The notes: generated by a model from the letters alone, not told the origin. 8,819 bases of DNA from Candidatus Vampirococcus lugosii (GCF_018420025.1 NZ_JAEDAM010000055.1:1-8819); one strand, 5' to 3'. Counted from the first letter of the stretch, positions 1-8,819 are shown. Translations and numbers: made by a program.

Positions 1-128
1 GGTTAGAAGTAGTTGAATATATATTACATAATTGAAAATTTTTCCGAAATAGAAATCAAAGAAAACAGCTACAGAATCAACAAAATTCACTTTTTTCTTT
101 AATTTAGATGCAGAAAATTAGAAAAATG

Positions 129-156
129 TTGATTTTTTTTGTAAAAACAATACAAT
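129..156 (+). promoter_or_regulatory. Candidate sigma70-type promoter for the small acidic ORF (TTGATT, 16-nt spacer, TACAAT)
   Basis: TTGATT lies at 129-134 and TACAAT at 151-156, with a 16-nt spacer, about 65 nt upstream of ATG 223. Such hexamers arise easily by chance in DNA this AT-rich, so this is tentative. Confidence 0.3.
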
Positions 157-163
157 TAGTTTG

Positions 164-187
164 TCCAAACTTTATTTAAAGTTTGGA
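164..187. promoter_or_regulatory. Perfect 24-bp palindrome TCCAAACTTTA-TT-TAAAGTTTGGA; possible operator or 5'-UTR hairpin
   Basis: The 11-nt arm at 164-174 is the exact reverse complement of 177-187, with a 2-nt centre. It sits just downstream of the candidate -10 and about 25 nt upstream of the SD of the small ORF. The symmetry is seen directly; the function is inferred. Confidence 0.4.
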
Positions 188-222
188 TATATCTGTAAAC
201 ACTGCATCAAAAGGTGAAAGAT

Positions 223-525
223 ATGTCTTCTCAAAACTATGTTTTTAATGATGAGTTGGTTCTAAATGATTCCTGGGATGGCTTTGACTGGGAAGAGACC
301 TGGGATGATACGGTTGAAACTGTAAATGATTCCTGGGATGGCTTTGACTGGGAAGAGACCTGGGATGATACGGTTGAAACTGTAAATGATTCCTGGGATA
401 ATAATGATAGTTTTGACTGGAACGAAACTGTATATGATACAGTTGGAATAGTAACAGAAGTTTGGGATCAAGCATTCTTTTTTTGAATCCAAACTATGTT
501 CTATCTAAAAAAGTTTTTAGAATAA
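223..525 (+). CDS. Hypothetical hyper-acidic, Trp-rich repeat protein (100 aa under table 25)
   Basis: ATG 223 is preceded by AAGGTGA (211-217), the only clear Shine-Dalgarno in the window. An in-frame GTG at 214 is an alternative start. The frame runs through TGA 484-486 (Gly in table 25) to TAA 523-525 and is followed by a hairpin plus T-run. My count is 17 D and 10 E against 2 K, with 9 W. The unit NDSWDGFDWEETWDDTVETV occurs twice exactly, then once as a diverged copy. I recognise no family. Confidence 0.6.
263..453 (+). repeat. 60-bp tandem repeat inside the small ORF (2.3 exact copies plus a degenerate third copy)
   Basis: Positions 263-339 are identical to 323-399 at a 60-nt offset. 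The third copy (385-453) diverges and is 9 nt longer. The period is a multiple of 3 and in frame, giving a 20-aa protein repeat. Confidence 0.95.
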
Positions 526-545
526 AATAATAATTTCACCTATTT

Positions 546-575
546 CCTGTGCTGTATTTCAGTGCAGGTTTTTTT
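546..575 (+). terminator. Rho-independent terminator of the small acidic ORF
   Basis: The stem CCTGTGCTG (546-554) pairs with CAGTGCAGG (560-568) across the loop TATTT. It has 9 pairs, two of which are G-U wobbles on the + strand RNA only. Seven T follow at 569-575. It lies 21 nt after the TAA stop. Confidence 0.7.
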
Positions 576-584
576 AAGAATAAT

Positions 585-971
585 TTAATAAATTAGTTCT
601 CTTTCATCTTTTGATAATTTTTCTATATATATATTTAAATATTCTTTGGATATATATTCTTTTATAAATTTTGGCCATTCTATACATATATATTCATATT
701 CATCAATTTTATCAAAAATTCACATTTCATAAATTTGTTCTATAGATTCTAATCTATACATATCTATATGTAATAATTTTTTGTATTCATTTATATATGT
801 ATATGTTGGACTTTGAATTATATTTTCAGAAATTCAAATTCATTTTGCAAATCATTTAACAAAATTTGTTTTTCCAACTCATAATTCTCAATTTAATAAT
901 ATTTTTTTATATCATTTTTGAGCTATTTTTTCAGCAAATATTTGCATATCTTCACTTGATTTTATTATCAT
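585..971 (-). CDS. tsaE: tRNA threonylcarbamoyladenosine (t6A) biosynthesis ATPase TsaE (YjeE family), 128 aa
   Basis: I checked the table-25 translation triplet by triplet: MIIKSSEDMQIFAEKIAQKGYKKILLNGELGVGKTNFVKGFAKGIGISENIIQSPTYTYINEYKKLLHIDMYRLESIEQIYEMGIFDKIDEYEYICIEWPKF... It carries the Walker A motif GELGVGKT plus the SPTY, DMYRL and IEWP motifs typical of TsaE. There are 7 in-frame TGA, including two Walker A glycines. TAA stops the frame at 585-587, and another TAA sits immediately upstream of the ATG. Confidence 0.85.
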
Positions 972-1357
972 TTATCTTTATAAGAATATATAAAATTAAT
1001 TATATATATTTAATATATTTCAAAAATCAATGTATAATATATTGCTTTATTATTTTATTTTTATAAATTTATTATGATTTATTCTATTTACTTGGGATAA
1101 ATATAAATCTATAAAAAAACAAAATCGTATAAGTGAAAAAAGACTTTTATTATTAGCACTGATATGATGATTTATATGACAATTAATATCTATGATATTA
1201 TTTAATCATAAAACAAGAAAAACTTCTTTTCAAATAAAACTTTTTTTAATAGTTTTATTATGGATTATTTCTATAATAATTTTCTTATATTTTGATTTTG
1301 AATATTAAAAAAATATTATTATAATAATTTATTTAAAAATAAATAATTATTTTAAAT

Positions 1358-3778
1358 ATGGAAAAAAAAATAAATAAATTTTATGAAACAGATGAAATTT
1401 GGGAAGATATAATACAAATGAATGAAAATATATATGAAACATTAATAGATGATGAAGAATATATAAAAATATTATCAAGTATGAAAAATGATTTTTCTTA
1501 TATTTTATTAGATATTATAAAAAATATATATTCAATTGATGAATTTAATAAATTATCTAATGATGATCTGTTTATATATTTTATAAAAAATACAAAAGAA
1601 AAAAATTTAAAAAATATAGTTGATTTATATAATATTACAAGTTGAGAAGAATTTGAATTAATATATAACAATGAATTGCTTAGGAATTTATTAGAATTTG
1701 CAAAAGAAGAAAATTTGGAATTTATTATAAGAATATTTAATAATGTTGAAGATTTTCAAAAAATATATAAAAATACTTATATGGTAAATGTTTTGAAAAA
1801 CTCAAAAGAAGAAAATTTTAGATATGTAATAAAATTATATGAATTAGAACTATTACAAAATCCTGATAATTTTTATGTTTCTAATAATGTTTTGAATATA
1901 TTAAAATATTCAGATTTACACAAATTAAAATATATTATAGATTTATGTAATAATTCACAAGATTTTGAAAATATTTGTAATAATGAAAATCTTATGGAAG
2001 TTTTAAATTTATGAAAAGAAGAAAATATTGAATTATTAATTAATTTATTTGATAATTTGGAAGAACTTAATTATTATTTAAATAATAGAAAAATAGTTAG
2101 AATATTAATTTTTTGAAAGAAAAATAATATTAAATTAATAATGAATTTATCTAATTCTTTGCAAGAATTTAGCGAAATTTGTAAAAATATAAATATATTG
2201 GATATAATGCAATATACAAAAGAAGAATATTTGGAATATATTATATATTTGTATAATATCAAAAATATAAATGAACTTGAAGATGTATTTGATAATGAAA
2301 TTATATTTGATATATGAGAAATAGCTCAAGCTGAAAATATTAATTTTTTAAATCAATATAGAAATCATAATTTAAGTTATAATATAAATAATTATATCAA
2401 AAAAAGAATTTTGGTTTCTCAAAATAATAGTCAAAAATTTTTTACAAAAAATTTTCCAAAATATAAAAATTTTTCAAAATTATTTGAATATTATATAAAT
2501 AATAAACAAAAATCTTTTTTTGATCTTTTGGAAAAAATAAAATTTGTAGAAGAATATTGATTAAATATTAATATAGATAAATTTGAAATTATTGAAAATT
2601 TTGAAAATTATTGAAATATAGATTTTGAAGAATTAAGAAAAAATTTTGAAAAAATAATTGATCTTAATCAGGAAAAACAAAAAAATAAACTTTTGAGAAA
2701 GTTTGATAATTTTGTTAAATCTAAAAATTTTGATTGATTGAAAAATTTTTTGGCTGAAAATTTAATAAAATATTTTGATAGAATTTATGATAAAAAATTA
2801 AAAATAAGAATAATAAATGAACTTAGAAAAAATTTGTGATGAAATATAAATATTTGAAATATTAAAAAATATAAAATAAATGATTTTGATTTTATTGAAG
2901 CATACAAAATGTCTATTAATCCAGCTTATAATAAAGATCAAATAAATAGTTTATTATATAATTATTTGCTTTGAAAATTTGAAAATATACAAGACTGTAA
3001 ACAGTATGATACAGAAAATAATAATAAATGGTTGGCAGAAAATTTAACAGAAGAACAACAAAAAATATGGTTGTCATCAAATAGGGAAGAGATAAGTCTT
3101 GATCAAGAAATTAATGATAAATCAATAAATAATTTAAATAATTTAATAGAAGAAAATTACAATAATTGTATTAATATAATAAATTTAATAAATGAACTTT
3201 GATTTAATTTCAAAACTAATTTTGATAAATATTGACAATTATTGGAATATTACAATATACATATAAAAAATTGTAATAAAGATATAGAAAAAAGAGATAA
3301 ACAAAATTTGACACAAGATTTGGAAAATCAAATTAATTTGATAAAAAAATTATTTAAAGAAAAAAAATGAAAAAATAGCAAAAAAATAATAATAGAAAAA
3401 GAATTAAATCCTATCAAATGTTTGATGATGTGAAATGTAGTAGATTGAAGTTGTATGTCATTTTATTTTCATGAATCAAATTATTATTCATGTATATCAA
3501 ATACTATAGATGTAAATAAATGAATTTTTTATATAAAAAATGAAAAATGAAATATTTTGTGAAGATGTATAATAACAATATGAAATGATAAAAAAATAAG
3601 TAGATATAAAATGTGATATTCGTCAAATATAAATGAACCTATAGATAAATATTTTGATGATTATACTATAAAATTATCAAAAAAAATGTGATTAAAATTA
3701 AATTGAGATCAAAATAAAGTTGAAAATATAGAATGTGATAAATGGTACAAAGATTGAGTAAAAAAAATTATAGAATAA
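1358..3778 (+). CDS. Large hypothetical protein (806 aa): N-terminal tandem helical repeats, Asn/Lys-rich middle, Gly/Cys-bearing C-terminal domain
   Basis: A single frame runs from ATG 1358 to TAA 3776-3778. I checked it line by line and found no TAA/TAG and 24 in-frame TGA. It joins track ORFs 1358-1645 and 1676-2014, which share this frame, and continues 1.7 kb further. An 806-codon frame free of TAA/TAG is very unlikely by chance in DNA this AT-rich. I recognise no family. Confidence 0.85.
1595..2326 (+). repeat. Seven tandem 34-36-aa protein repeats (diverged at DNA level) within the 806-aa CDS
   Basis: The units are KEKNLKNIVDLYNITSGEEFELIYNNELLRNLLEFA / KEENLEFIIRIFNNVEDFQKIYKNTYMVNVLKNS / KEENFRYVIKLYELELLQNPDNFYVSNNVLNILKYS / DLHKLKYIIDLCNNSQDFENICNNENLMEVLNLG / KEENIELLINLFDNLEELNYYLNNRKIVRILIFG / KKNNIKLIMNLSNSLQEFSEICKNINILDIMQYT / KEEYLEYIIYLYNIKNINELEDVFDNEIIFDIGEIA. 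They total 244 aa, which matches 732 nt. The shared pattern is KEEN-h-x-h-h-x-L, a turn, then a second helix-like segment. Confidence 0.6.
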
Positions 3779-3980
3779 ATAGTATTATTGCTTATTTAAT
3801 TAAAGAAATTATGTAAAAATTTTGCTTTTTTTATTTAGTATTTTTTAAGTGTACAAATTTAGTATAAATAGTATTGAAATTTTTTTAGTTATTTACTAAA
3901 AATTTATTGAAATATTCATAAAGGAAAGTTTTGAGTCCAAATATATTGTAAATAATCTATATGTAGATTAATATTTTGTT

Positions 3981-4008
3981 TTGTAAAGTAGATAATATAA
4001 TATATAAT
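3981..4008 (+). promoter_or_regulatory. Candidate sigma70-type promoter upstream of trxB (TTGTAA, 16-nt spacer, TATAAT)
   Basis: TTGTAA lies at 3981-3986 and a consensus TATAAT at 4003-4008, about 80 nt upstream of ATG 4088. The AT-rich background makes chance matches likely. Confidence 0.25.
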
Positions 4009-4087
4009 TATTTACACTATATATAGTACAATGTAATTTAATTTGTATTATATGTTTAGTATTTTTAAAAAATTAAATTAAACAAAT

Positions 4088-5017
<930 letters not shown>

Positions 5018-5034
5018 AATAAAATATAATATAA

Positions 5035-5108
5035 TATAGACTAGTGTTGTTTACAAAAATAAAAATTTTATCTATTATATTTTTTTGTGTAAACAATGCT
5101 AGTCTATA
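5035..5108. terminator. Long inverted repeat (about 21-bp stem) between convergent trxB and the 129-aa ORF; probable terminator, possibly bidirectional
   Basis: The arm at 5035-5055 (TATAGACTAGTGTTGTTTACA) pairs with 5088-5108 (TGTAAACAATGCTAGTCTATA). Two positions are G-U wobbles on the + RNA and C-A mismatches on the - RNA. The A-run and T-run inside the loop can extend the pairing. It lies 18 nt after the trxB stop and 16 nt after the stop of the minus-strand ORF. Confidence 0.55.
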
Positions 5109-5123
5109 ATTACATTTAATATT

Positions 5124-5513
5124 TTAAGTTATATTTTTCCAATCAATAATTTCATTATTATTTTTAATTTTCCAATTATATAAATAAATATTAACTTTTT
5201 TATTTTGTAAATAAATTTTTGTCCTTTTATATCTAAAAAGATATACTGATTCTATAAATCAAAGCAATATTATTAAATAATAATATTTAAAAATTGATAA
5301 TTTATAATTATTTATTTCAGCAATTATATAATTTTTTGATTTTGATTTATTTCTAATTAATCACGGACTTATTCATAAATTGTACATTTTGTATCATTCA
5401 AGATTTATTTTTTTGGATAAATAACTTTTTGGTAATAGTTTTGAATATCTCTCTCATTCTCTCAAATTTCAATAATATATAAACCAATAATCTTTTTTTT
5501 TAAATAATTTCAT
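5124..5513 (-). CDS. Hypothetical protein, 129 aa, one hydrophobic segment (possible membrane anchor)
   Basis: The translation, checked triplet by triplet, is MKLFKKKDYWFIYYGNLREGERYSKLLPKSYLSKKINLEGYKMYNLGISPGLIRNKSKSKNYIIAEINNYKLSIFKYYYLIILLGFIESVYLFRYKRTKIYLQNKKVNIYLYNWKIKNNNEIIDWKNIT. It has 6 in-frame TGA, a TAA stop at 5124-5126 and an in-frame stop 6 codons upstream of the ATG. It is absent from the standard-code track. I recognise no family. Support comes from ORF length in AT-rich DNA and host-like codon usage. Confidence 0.6.
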
Positions 5514-5693
5514 TAAATTAAAAATTTTTTAGTAATTAAATAACAAAACTTATATTAAATTATTTTTAATATATTTTTCAGTATTTAATTTTTTTAATAT
5601 TACTAAATCTCTTTTACCCACTCATTTCATTAATATGTCTTTTATCTATTTTTTATAAAAATCAAACTTAATTTATTAATTAAGAATCTTTTT

Positions 5694-6254
5694 TTAATTA
5701 AAACTAATTTTAGGTGCTTTTTCTAATTCTTCTCTATTATCAATTTCAAAATATTCTTTTTTATTAAATCCAAAAATTGGTGCTATAATATTTGATGGGA
5801 ATATTTCTACATAAGTATTTAATTCTTTTGTAGAAGAATTAAAATATCTTCTTGATGAAGCAAGTTTATTTTCAATATTTGACATTTCATTTTGCATTTG
5901 CAAAAAATTTTGATTTGCCTTAAGATCAGGATAAGATTCACTTACTGCAAATAAAGATTTAAGAGTTCATTCCAACATATTACCTGATTGAACTTTTTCA
6001 TCTACAGTATTTGAATTTAAAAATGATGTTCTAGCTTCAGTAACTTTTTGTAATGTTTCTTTTTCATGATTCATATATCATTTTATAGATTCTAATAATT
6101 GTGGTATTAGATCAGCTCTCATTTTTAATTGTACATCTATATCAGAGAAACTATTTTCTCTATTATTTTTTAGTTTAACTAATTTATTATAAATTATAAT
6201 AATATAAATTATTATTATTCATAATATTATAAGTATAACGATTGTAGAAGTCAT
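5694..6254 (-). CDS. lemA: LemA family membrane protein, 186 aa
   Basis: The translation begins [75 protein letters not shown]. It continues through [61 protein letters not shown]. This is an N-terminal TM helix plus the canonical LemA core. The track reports only the C-terminal 69 aa (5694-5903). There are 3 in-frame TGA, checked triplet by triplet. Confidence 0.9.
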
Positions 6255-6279
6255 TAAATGTTTTTAAAATTTATAAAAA

Positions 6280-6870
6280 CTATTTTATTTCTTTACTTGA
6301 TACAATAATTTCATCTATTAATCAATATTTTTTTGCAGATTCAGCATCCAAAAAATTATCTCTTTCTACATCTTTTTCTATTTTACTAATTTTTTGTCAA
6401 GTATGTTGTGCTAATATTCAGTTTAATATTTTTCTAGTTTTGATAATATGATCAGCATGAATTTGTATATCAGATGCCTGTCATTCTACTCATCCCAAAG
6501 GTTGATGAATCATTACTTCAGAATTCGGTAATGCAAATCTTTTTCATTTTGTTCAAGCAGTAAGTAATATTGATCACATACTAGCTGCCATTCAAGTACA
6601 TACTGTAGCTATATCACAATTTACATATTGCATAGTATCATAAATAGCCATACCAGATGTTACAACTCAACCAGGACTATTTATATACATAACTATATCT
6701 TTTTCAGGATCTTGTTTTTCCAAAAATAAAAGTTGTGCAATTATAGAATTTGCCATATTTGGCTCCACTTGAGTTCATACAAAAATAATTCTATCTTCCA
6801 ATAATCTAGAATAAATATCATATGCTCTTTCTCAATTCGCTGTTTTCTCTATGACTGTAGGTATTATCAT
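6280..6870 (-). CDS. clpP: ATP-dependent Clp protease proteolytic subunit ClpP, 196 aa
   Basis: The translation is [143 protein letters not shown]...[21 protein letters not shown]. It is collinear with E. coli ClpP, including the catalytic Ser (GMAASMGS), His (MIHQP) and Asp (ERDNF) contexts. There are 12 in-frame TGA, all at Gly positions of the ClpP alignment. TAG stops the frame at 6280-6282. The gene is entirely missing from the standard-code track. Confidence 0.95.
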
Positions 6871-6997
6871 TAAATATTTTATTAAATTAAATAAATGTCA
6901 AATTTATATATAAATAATTAAAAATTTCAACTTGAAATATTACAAAAAAATATTATTAATGAATAAATTTTTATTAAATTAAAATTTATTTTGAATA

Positions 6998-8578
6998 ATG
7001 AAAAAAATATTATTTATATTTATTGTTATTTTGTTTTGAACAATATGAAAATCTTTTGCAAATTTGGTTGATGTTGTAGAAGAAAAACAAAATAAATTAA
7101 CTTCATCAGTATCTAATAAATATCAAAATTTACAAAATCTATATGAAAATAAAATAAATAAATTAAGTGAAAAAGAATATTATGATATATTAATAGAACT
7201 TGAACAAATAGATTTTTCTGAAATTAAAAAAGAAAATCTTGATAGATATTTTGAAATAGAAGATAAAATAATTAAAGATTTTAATTCTTTCAAAAATAGA
7301 AATAGAAATTTATCTAGAGATTTATCTTTTGATTTAATAGATCAAGATAGATTTGAAACACTTTTAGAATCTTTAAATAATGATATTGATTGAAATATTA
7401 AATATTATGAAGATTTAATAAATCAATATGAAAATAATTATAGTGATAAAATAAATAATTTGAAAAAAAAATATGAAAATATAGTTGACGAAAATCAAGA
7501 TAAAATTGATACTATATTTGATAATATATCAAAAATTGAAAATTTTATTGAAAAATTTAATAATCTCAAAAAAGATATAAATCATATAAATAAAGTTTAT
7601 ATGTGATCTTCATCTACTATTTATGATTTTATAGAAAGTTTTGAACAAGAAACCACTGCTTGACTACAAAAATCATTAAATTCTGAAATTGATAATTATT
7701 ACGATAAATATAAAAATTTTCAAAATTTTTTATGAGAAGATATTGAACAAAAAAAAGATTTATTATTGAAAGAATATAGTAAAGAAATTGATGAATATTT
7801 TCAATGATTGATTGATTGATTTTATTCAAAAAAAGATTATAATGATATTACTTCTTTTTATGAAGAAGTTATAAATAATTATTACAATGATGATGAAATT
7901 TCTTATTCATCAGTTATTGATTTAGATTTATCTTGATTGAATGATTATTCAAATTTAATTGATAAAAATTTGAATAGTATAGATACTAAATTAGACGAGT
8001 TTGATAATGCAAGTGATTATCAAGAGTTAAGAGAAAATTTAATTAATAGATCTGAAGATTTTTATGAATCAAAAAAAACTCAAAAAATAGAAGATATTAA
8101 AAAATATTTGGAAAAAGAACTTGAGTTTTTTATGTTAAAAAGTTCCAAAAATTTATCTATATATAATAATATAAATCAAGATATAGAAGAATTGGAAAAT
8201 TTGAGTACTTGAGAAAAGATAAATAAAATTGATAATATATTAAATTCTATAGAAAATAATCTTGATGAATTTATAGATTTGAATTTAAAAAAAGATTTGA
8301 AAGAACAAAAAAATAATCTATTAGTGAAACAAATAGATTATGAAATAATAAGTAGATGATTACTTAAATATGATATTCAATACTCAAATATATCAGAATT
8401 ATTGGAAAATATACTTAATAATATGTATCAAGAATATTGAGATAAAGAAGATTTTGTGATAAAAATAGAAACTGCTATAAATAATGCTAATGTTTTATTA
8501 CAACAAAATGATTTATGAAAATGAAATAAATATTTGTTGTTTAGAATAAAACAAGCTATGATTAAGTTTTTGAATTAA
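6998..8578 (+). CDS. Secreted/surface hypothetical protein, 526 aa, Sec-type signal peptide followed by a long Asn/Lys/Glu/Asp/Ile-rich predicted coiled coil
   Basis: The frame runs from ATG 6998 to the tandem TAA TAA at 8576-8581, with 14 in-frame TGA. It joins track ORFs 7064-7393 and 7937-8212, which share this frame. The N-terminus MKKILFIFIVILFGTIGKSFA|NLVDV has a KK n-region, a hydrophobic core and an S-F-A cleavage-type c-region. The rest is charged, heptad-like and low in complexity. I recognise no family. Confidence 0.8.
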
Positions 8579-8596
8579 TAACCTAAAAATATAAAA

Positions 8597-8819
8597 ATGT
8601 TTTCTTATAAAAATTATTCCAAAAAATGATTTACATTGATAGAAATGGTTTTAGTTACAATTATTTTGTCTTTGGTGTTTTTAGTAATAATATCTACATA
8701 TTTGGGGATGATAAGTTCTAGAGTACAAATACAAGCTAGACAAACTCTTACTGAAAATACATATTTTATGCTAGAGAGATTAAATGCTGTAGTATCAGAT
8801 TTTACTATAGATTATGAAG
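8597..8819 (+). CDS. Prepilin-type N-terminal cleavage/methylation domain protein (type IV pilin or pseudopilin-like), 3'-truncated by the window edge
   Basis: The translation is MFSYKNYSKKG|FTLIEMVLVTIILSLVFLVIISTYLGMISSRVQIQARQTLTENTYFMLERLNAVVSDFTIDYE. It has the class III signal peptide G/FTLIE with Glu5 and a hydrophobic alpha1-N helix. The cleavage-site Gly is the TGA at 8627-8629. The gene starts 18 nt after the upstream gene's first stop codon and runs off the window. Confidence 0.85.

Follow-up and report, generated by a model that had tools for sequence, protein, structure and literature searches.

Predicted glycine assignment of UGA in an 8,819-nucleotide contig of Candidatus Vampirococcus lugosii

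The window analysed here is the whole 8,819-nucleotide stretch of Candidatus Vampirococcus lugosii DNA (GCF_018420025.1 NZ_JAEDAM010000055.1:1-8819), and its subject is the meaning of the UGA codon in its genes. Judged from the sequence, this contig almost certainly uses genetic code 25, in which UGA specifies glycine and UAA and UAG are the sole terminators; UGG stays a tryptophan codon distinct from UGA. Many in-frame UGA codons lie in genuine genes that are terminated only by UAA or UAG, UGA falls on conserved glycine columns in TrxB, ClpP and TsaE and in five Pfam families, UGG corresponds to tryptophan apart from UGA (in TrxB columns, in the EW motif of TsaE and at orthologous codons), and the organism is a member of the Absconditabacteria (lineage Candidatus Absconditibacteriota). 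This reading of the contig is already known: Moreira et al. 2021 (PMC8080830) have made public the organism, its code and annotations for each of the ten genes. The genome paper reports reassignment of UGA to glycine, with genes called by Prodigal under table 25, and describes V. lugosii as a predator living epibiotically on phototrophic Halochromatium (PMC8080830), in agreement with an initial annotation made from the sequence alone, which had placed the DNA in an episymbiotic or predatory lineage of the Candidate Phyla Radiation.

The GC content of the window is 19.3%. Under the standard bacterial code (table 11) only five open reading frames (ORFs) of at least 80 amino acids (aa) were found, summing to 497 codons with a longest ORF of 112 aa, and on the clpP strand not one ORF between 6280 and 6870 reached 40 aa. 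Reading TGA as sense produced nine complete, non-overlapping ORFs of 103, 128, 92, 806, 309, 129, 186, 196 and 526 aa (2475 codons, against the 497 of table 11) and one partial prepilin-like ORF of 74 aa, for a coding density of 87% of the window. The loss of clpP and the truncation of the other genes that the initial annotation expected from standard-code calling were thus both observed. The longest open frame spans 811 codons, compared to a maximum of 185 among 200 dinucleotide-preserving shuffles. Across the 2548 codons of the ten ORFs there are 94 in-frame TGA, no TAA and no TAG, while out-of-frame counts on the coding strands reach 327 TAA and 126 TAG. Eight of the nine complete ORFs end in TAA and one, clpP, in TAG.

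These counts refine the initial annotation in several details. Its description of scattered fragments becoming long, gap-free genes once TGA is read as sense holds, but the ORFs number ten rather than nine. It had reported 88 in-frame TGA; all eight of its per-gene counts are exact but sum to 89, and the window total is 94 because two ORFs it did not list, g1 and the DUF1294 gene, add one and four TGA, respectively. The TAG stop of clpP was placed correctly, but the complete ORFs with a TAA stop number eight where seven had been given.

If TGA codons were real stops under the standard code, the contig would consist of pseudogenes or would carry errors from whole-genome amplification or assembly, and the genome was indeed assembled from multiple displacement amplification (MDA) and multiple annealing and looping-based amplification cycles (MALBAC) products of a few cells (PMC8080830). 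We consider this vanishingly improbable. Random errors would also have given in-frame TAA and TAG and would not have targeted glycine columns, yet the in-frame stops in this 19% GC DNA are exclusively TGA and these sit on invariant glycine positions. Relatives carry TGA at the same codons, and an independent Logan assembly of run SRR13241709 contains clpP DNA identical to that of the window.

To determine which amino acid TGA encodes, residue-identity tests were started from translations in which TGA was masked as X. In ClpP, 11 of the 12 TGA codons are opposite glycine in Staphylococcus aureus ClpP and the remaining one is opposite arginine in a variable column. In TrxB, 16 of 22 are opposite glycine in yeast Trr1, with the others opposite A, N, S or H. 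All six aligned TGA codons of tsaE are opposite glycine in Bacillus subtilis TsaE, including those of the Walker-A motif G-x-L-G-x-GKT, and the seventh is opposite glycine in the Thermotoga maritima protein. The X-masked alignments place TGA on the invariant glycines that the initial annotation had named: GSGPAG, CDG and GGGDS in TrxB; SPGG, AGxKGKR, PLGG, TGQ and YGLID in ClpP; GxLGxGKT in TsaE; and G|FTLIE in the prepilin. Against a reference set of 74 TrxB homologs from standard-code phyla, the pooled TGA columns hold 68.7% glycine and 0.1% tryptophan, and glycine is the commonest residue at 18 of the 22; tabulated by residue as the initial annotation had suggested, the TrxB and ClpP columns are mostly glycine columns and not tryptophan columns. 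As controls, columns at the window's own GGN codons hold 81% glycine and 0% tryptophan, and columns at its TGG codons hold 43.5% tryptophan and 0.7% glycine. The two TrxB TGG codons are at position 203, which is W in 59% of homologs, and position 129, where W is the commonest residue, and the TGG of tsaE falls in the conserved EW motif; the earlier statement that genuine tryptophans are kept on TGG is upheld at all three.

A Codetta-style likelihood was computed with profile hidden Markov models (HMMs) built from the 74 TrxB and 104 ClpP homologs and covering 32 TGA columns. Glycine scored best of the 20 amino acids with a posterior of ~1, and the log likelihood difference lnL(Gly) - lnL(Trp) was +135 overall and +52 for ClpP alone; the positive controls GGT and AGA were recovered as glycine and arginine. 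Six ORFs matched Pfam families with TGA either masked or unmasked. In all five curated families the score decreased in the order glycine, X, tryptophan: 113.9, 98.2 and 89.6 bits for TsaE; 78.6, 64.1 and 59.2 for DUF1294; 151.2, 109.5 and 85.4 for Pyr_redox_2 (TrxB); 187.1, 182.3 and 181.0 for LemA; and 283.4, 247.8 and 237.4 for CLP_protease. The differences between glycine and tryptophan sum to ~162 bits. The prepilin scored 28.0 bits against N_methyl with glycine and 17.0 with X, so that the cutoff of 21.2 was passed only with glycine. Softer evidence comes from the repeats of the 806-aa ORF, in which TGA fills a slot otherwise occupied by T, A or S.

A Mycoplasma-type code (table 4), in which UGA is tryptophan, leaves the ORF map untouched. 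UGA is read as tryptophan in the Mollicutes and in very AT-rich insect endosymbionts (Zinderia, Nasuia and Hodgkinia), and the very low GC of the window resembles that of such endosymbionts. Automated pipelines did translate these genes in this way, as Logan proteins with W at every TGA demonstrate. The initial annotation had counted equal coding density under table 4 as a refutation of the glycine reading, but this criterion is ill-posed: tables 4 and 25 share their stop codons and thus give identical ORF structure and coding density by construction, so that only the residue at TGA columns separates them. At those columns table 4 fails, since tryptophan is essentially never found there, the likelihood favors glycine by the +135 given above, and in every one of the five Pfam families tryptophan translations cost 6 to 66 bits and score below even the X-masked translations. 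TGA is also never opposite TGG in orthologs, and the organism is an Absconditabacterium. The argument of the initial annotation against tryptophan is accordingly sustained by columns, likelihood and Pfam scores, and we regard table 4 as highly improbable.

The ten ORFs are as follows; with TGA translated as glycine, all are exact matches to V. lugosii GenBank/RefSeq proteins (MBS8122205-MBS8122213, WP_2133495xx).

214..525, plus strand: g1, a hypothetical W/D-rich repeat protein of 103 aa with a GTG start or 100 aa if begun at the ATG at 223; a single in-frame TGA (484-486), nine TGG, stop TAA; MBS8122208.1 / WP_213349549.1, with glycine at the TGA.
585..971, minus strand: tsaE, 128 aa; seven in-frame TGA, stop TAA; MBS8122206.1.
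1030..1308, plus strand: DUF1294 membrane protein, 92 aa; four in-frame TGA, no GGN, stop TAA; WP_213349555.1.
1358..3778, plus strand: 806-aa hypothetical protein; 24 in-frame TGA, no GGN, stop TAA; MBS8122207.1.
4088..5017, plus strand: trxB, thioredoxin-disulfide reductase, 309 aa; 22 in-frame TGA, 13 GGN, two TGG, stop TAA; MBS8122209.1.
5124..5513, minus strand: 129-aa hypothetical protein; six in-frame TGA, no GGN, stop TAA; MBS8122210.1.
5694..6254, minus strand: lemA, 186 aa; three in-frame TGA, stop TAA; MBS8122211.1.
6280..6870, minus strand: clpP, 196 aa; 12 in-frame TGA, three GGN, stop TAG; 100% identical in a protein search to NCBI V. lugosii ClpP (P0001).
6998..8578, plus strand: 526-aa hypothetical protein with a hydrophobic N-terminus; 14 in-frame TGA, no GGN, stop TAA; MBS8122213.1.
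8597..8819, plus strand: prepilin-type (PulJ/GspJ-like) protein, cut short by the end of the contig after its first 74 aa; a single TGA (8627-8629), the -1 glycine in G|FTLIE, the motif for cleavage and methylation; MBS8122205.1, annotated as "PulJ/GspJ family protein, partial".

The position of the single TGA in g1, 10 codons before the gene end, is compatible with partial termination and bears on a further possibility, that UGA is dual or ambiguous. UGA would then be mostly glycine with some codons still terminating, or tRNA-Gly(UCA) would misread UGA and UGG by wobble; U34 wobble has been noted as a potential source of ambiguity between UGA (glycine) and UGG (tryptophan) in the clade (PMC8629427). 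No ORF of the ten, however, needs TGA as its stop, a TAA or TAG following shortly after the conserved region, and TGG and TGA cleanly occupy different column types. Clade members with a reassigned UGA are moreover reported to have lost release factor 2 (RF2) (PMC8629427), and we give dual decoding only a slim chance.

Selenocysteine insertion or programmed read-through at UGA is another alternative, as UGA serves as a selenocysteine codon in many bacteria. The ten genes hold 94 UGA, as many as 24 in a single gene, located at glycine and not at cysteine or selenocysteine columns, and we attach next to no probability to this alternative. The redox-active CxxC cysteines of TrxB are ordinary TGT codons (17 TGT and no TGC in the window), and in an Rfam scan of the window no RNA family reached threshold, the selenocysteine insertion sequence (SECIS) included.

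Three observations weigh against the assignment of UGA to glycine or fail to add to it. First, 4 of 22 TrxB and 1 of 12 ClpP TGA columns are not dominated by glycine in homologs, holding A, V, S or R instead. This is no real counter-evidence, because the columns are variable and the window's own GGN codons behave likewise (2 of 13). Second, neither a tRNA gene (by tRNA scan) nor a release-factor gene is present in the window, which at 8.8 kb is too short to show genomic absence; a tRNA scan of five relatives' loci (46 kb) likewise found none. Third, neither release factors (prfA and prfB among them) nor tRNA-Gly come up in the supplementary text of the genome paper (PMC8080830).

Work on the wider clade suggests how glycine would be inserted at UGA. 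A tRNA-Gly(UCA) gene is expected in UGA-reassigned Gracilibacteria and Absconditabacteria (PMC8629427), and those nominal "Gracilibacteria" in which UGA is not glycine, the sole exceptions, lack a tRNA-Gly(UCA) gene and have RF2 (Shulgina & Eddy, PMC8629427). By extension from this literature rather than from the window itself, UGA in V. lugosii would be read by a tRNA-Gly with anticodon UCA charged by glycyl-tRNA synthetase, and loss of RF2 would keep UGA from being read as a stop. AT mutational pressure may then favor TGA over GGN.

Comparison with orthologous codons was made for two relatives, the locus of Ca. Absconditicoccus praedator (L081) and that of a closer relative (L082). Window TGA pairs with TGA (14 sites in L081, 20 in L082) or with GGN (four sites). 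Of the five window GGN sites compared in each relative, two have TGA; TGG was never found opposite a window TGA or GGN in either. Among ClpP relatives TGA and GGN are mixed at the same columns, and in a protein search the nearest ClpP outside the species was that of Ca. A. praedator. The 526-aa ORF adjoins clpP in Absconditabacteria, with orthologs of 28-39% identity at the same position in both L081 and L082, and synteny across Absconditabacteria extends over the 526-aa ORF, clpP and lemA (comparison of window 5124-8578 with L081 8211-12115 and L082 8272-12090). The next gene after lemA is an M48 peptidase in L081 and L082, and in the window the 129-aa ORF and trxB follow; these different neighbors indicate that a rearrangement, or gene loss or gain, has taken place at the lemA boundary of the window.

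TGA is the majority glycine codon of the window, with 94 TGA to 23 GGN (80%), and its share is 74% in L081 (Ca. A. praedator) and 87% in L082. The DUF1294, 806-aa, 129-aa and 526-aa ORFs, which have no characterized protein family, contain 48 TGA and no GGN, and GGN persists mainly in trxB (13). Heavy use of TGA as a glycine codon has been reported in code-25 bacteria (PMC10746230).

For the clade as a whole, table 25 may not be the complete code, given the Codetta prediction that CGA and CGG are tryptophan in Absconditabacteria (Shulgina & Eddy 2021, PMC8629427). The window resembles the subjects of that extended code (UGA as glycine, CGA/CGG as tryptophan) in clade, in its depressed CGN box and in its AGA-dominated arginine usage (CGA 0, CGG 0, CGC 0, CGT 1, AGA 55, AGG 4), and since it lacks any CGA or CGG codon it neither supports nor contradicts the prediction for V. 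lugosii. In a brief look, a few CGA/CGG codons were seen in the relatives, including a CGG at codon 117 of L081 PilB ("LPTV?GEKLVMR"); PilB/GspE ATPases commonly have an aromatic residue at this position, in keeping with the predicted reading of CGG as tryptophan. A CGA is kept at the same M48 peptidase codon (123) in L081 and L082.

Some further features of the individual genes were recorded. A perfect 60-bp tandem repeat in g1 at 263-399 (100% match over 2.3 copies) codes for units that are acidic and rich in Trp, NDSWDGFDWEETWDDTVETV, with no Pfam family; local GC in this region is ~25%, and it holds nine of the 21 TGG codons of the window. The 806-aa ORF has at least six degenerate ~35-aa repeats in its N-terminal half with the anchor motif "[small]-KEEN-[ILF]", and its C-terminal 150 aa are rich in cysteine and in TGA-encoded glycine. 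With glycine restored, neither this protein nor the 129-aa protein matched a Pfam family, and no significant family was found for any of the four hypothetical proteins. Two hairpins sit between convergent genes. One at 546-568, after g1 and opposite tsaE, combines a GC-rich stem of 9 bp with a T run after it, and is a candidate intrinsic terminator. The other, between trxB and the 129-aa ORF at 5035-5108, is a long inverted repeat with 32-nt arms, 84% complementary and 10 nt apart; on the plus strand its two mismatches form G-U pairs.

The closest solved structures to TrxB are eukaryotic low-molecular-weight thioredoxin reductases, yeast Trr1 and Arabidopsis NTR (E ~1e-107), and the Escherichia coli TrxB structure was matched less well (~1e-70). 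Its best genome matches among GTDB representatives, at up to 66% identity, are from Fibrobacterales, Omnitrophota and Spirochaetia; this search returned only standard-code phyla and no Absconditabacteria TrxB. This gap may reflect interference of TGA with the search, or may hint that the gene was acquired horizontally. The V. lugosii genome is reported to contain 126 genes of horizontal gene transfer origin (PMC8080830).

At the level of the whole window, neither a TAG-sense nor a TAA-sense reading gave a coherent gene map. An exact DNA search of IMG/VR came back empty and thus gave no hint that the DNA is viral. A sigma-70 promoter scan found 114 sites where 108.7 were expected and is uninformative in such AT-rich DNA.

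Compared to known systems, the window shares with the SR1/Gracilibacteria code 25 the reading of UGA as glycine, the UAA and UAG stops, UGG as tryptophan, low GC and heavy use of TGA for glycine, and shows no difference in kind; it comes from a named member of the clade whose published annotation uses table 25. Its 19.3% GC lies slightly below the genome range of 0.21-0.53 quoted for Absconditabacteria and Gracilibacteria (PMC8629427), and also below that of the fetched relatives' loci (23-28%). The code-25 literature cited through PMC8080830 and PMC8629427 includes Campbell et al. 2013, Rinke et al. 2013 and Hanke et al. 2014. Table 4 as used by Mycoplasmatales, Entomoplasmatales, Hodgkinia, Zinderia, Nasuia and Stammera is alike in the captured codon, the UAA/UAG stops, the ORF maps and the tie to AT-rich reduced genomes, but differs in that tryptophan is inserted, at odds with window TGA columns that are 68.7% glycine and 0.1% tryptophan.

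Mistranslation under table 4 can be seen directly in public data. Logan proteins P0003, P0123, P0125, P0128 and P0134 (SRR13241709) equal the NCBI proteins except for tryptophan at every TGA, the proteins affected being ClpP, TsaE, LemA, the 806-aa protein and TrxB (from the window loci and L085 81-671). The DNA behind them is the same as that of the window. ClpP of related Absconditabacteria likewise appears with tryptophan at TGA (P0005, P0006, P0008, P0009, P0010 and P0013).

With its code and genes published (NCBI MBS8122205-MBS8122213), the contig has no discovery value but is of practical use for quality control, as standard-code calling destroys its genes. Pipelines that pick a code by coding density choose table 4 and place tryptophan at every TGA-encoded glycine. 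For Absconditabacteria and Gracilibacteria, sequences mistranslated in this way can find their way into alignments, profile models and structure predictions and contaminate them. A more speculative idea, which we hold to be doubtful, is that UGA is displacing the canonical GGN box, so that V. lugosii would represent an extreme AT-driven codon takeover if the pattern of the window extends genome-wide. Should that be true, GGN (or CGN) would be nearing the rarity that permits further reassignment, and U34 wobble, by making UGA and UGG ambiguous, would impose a significant cost across the proteome.

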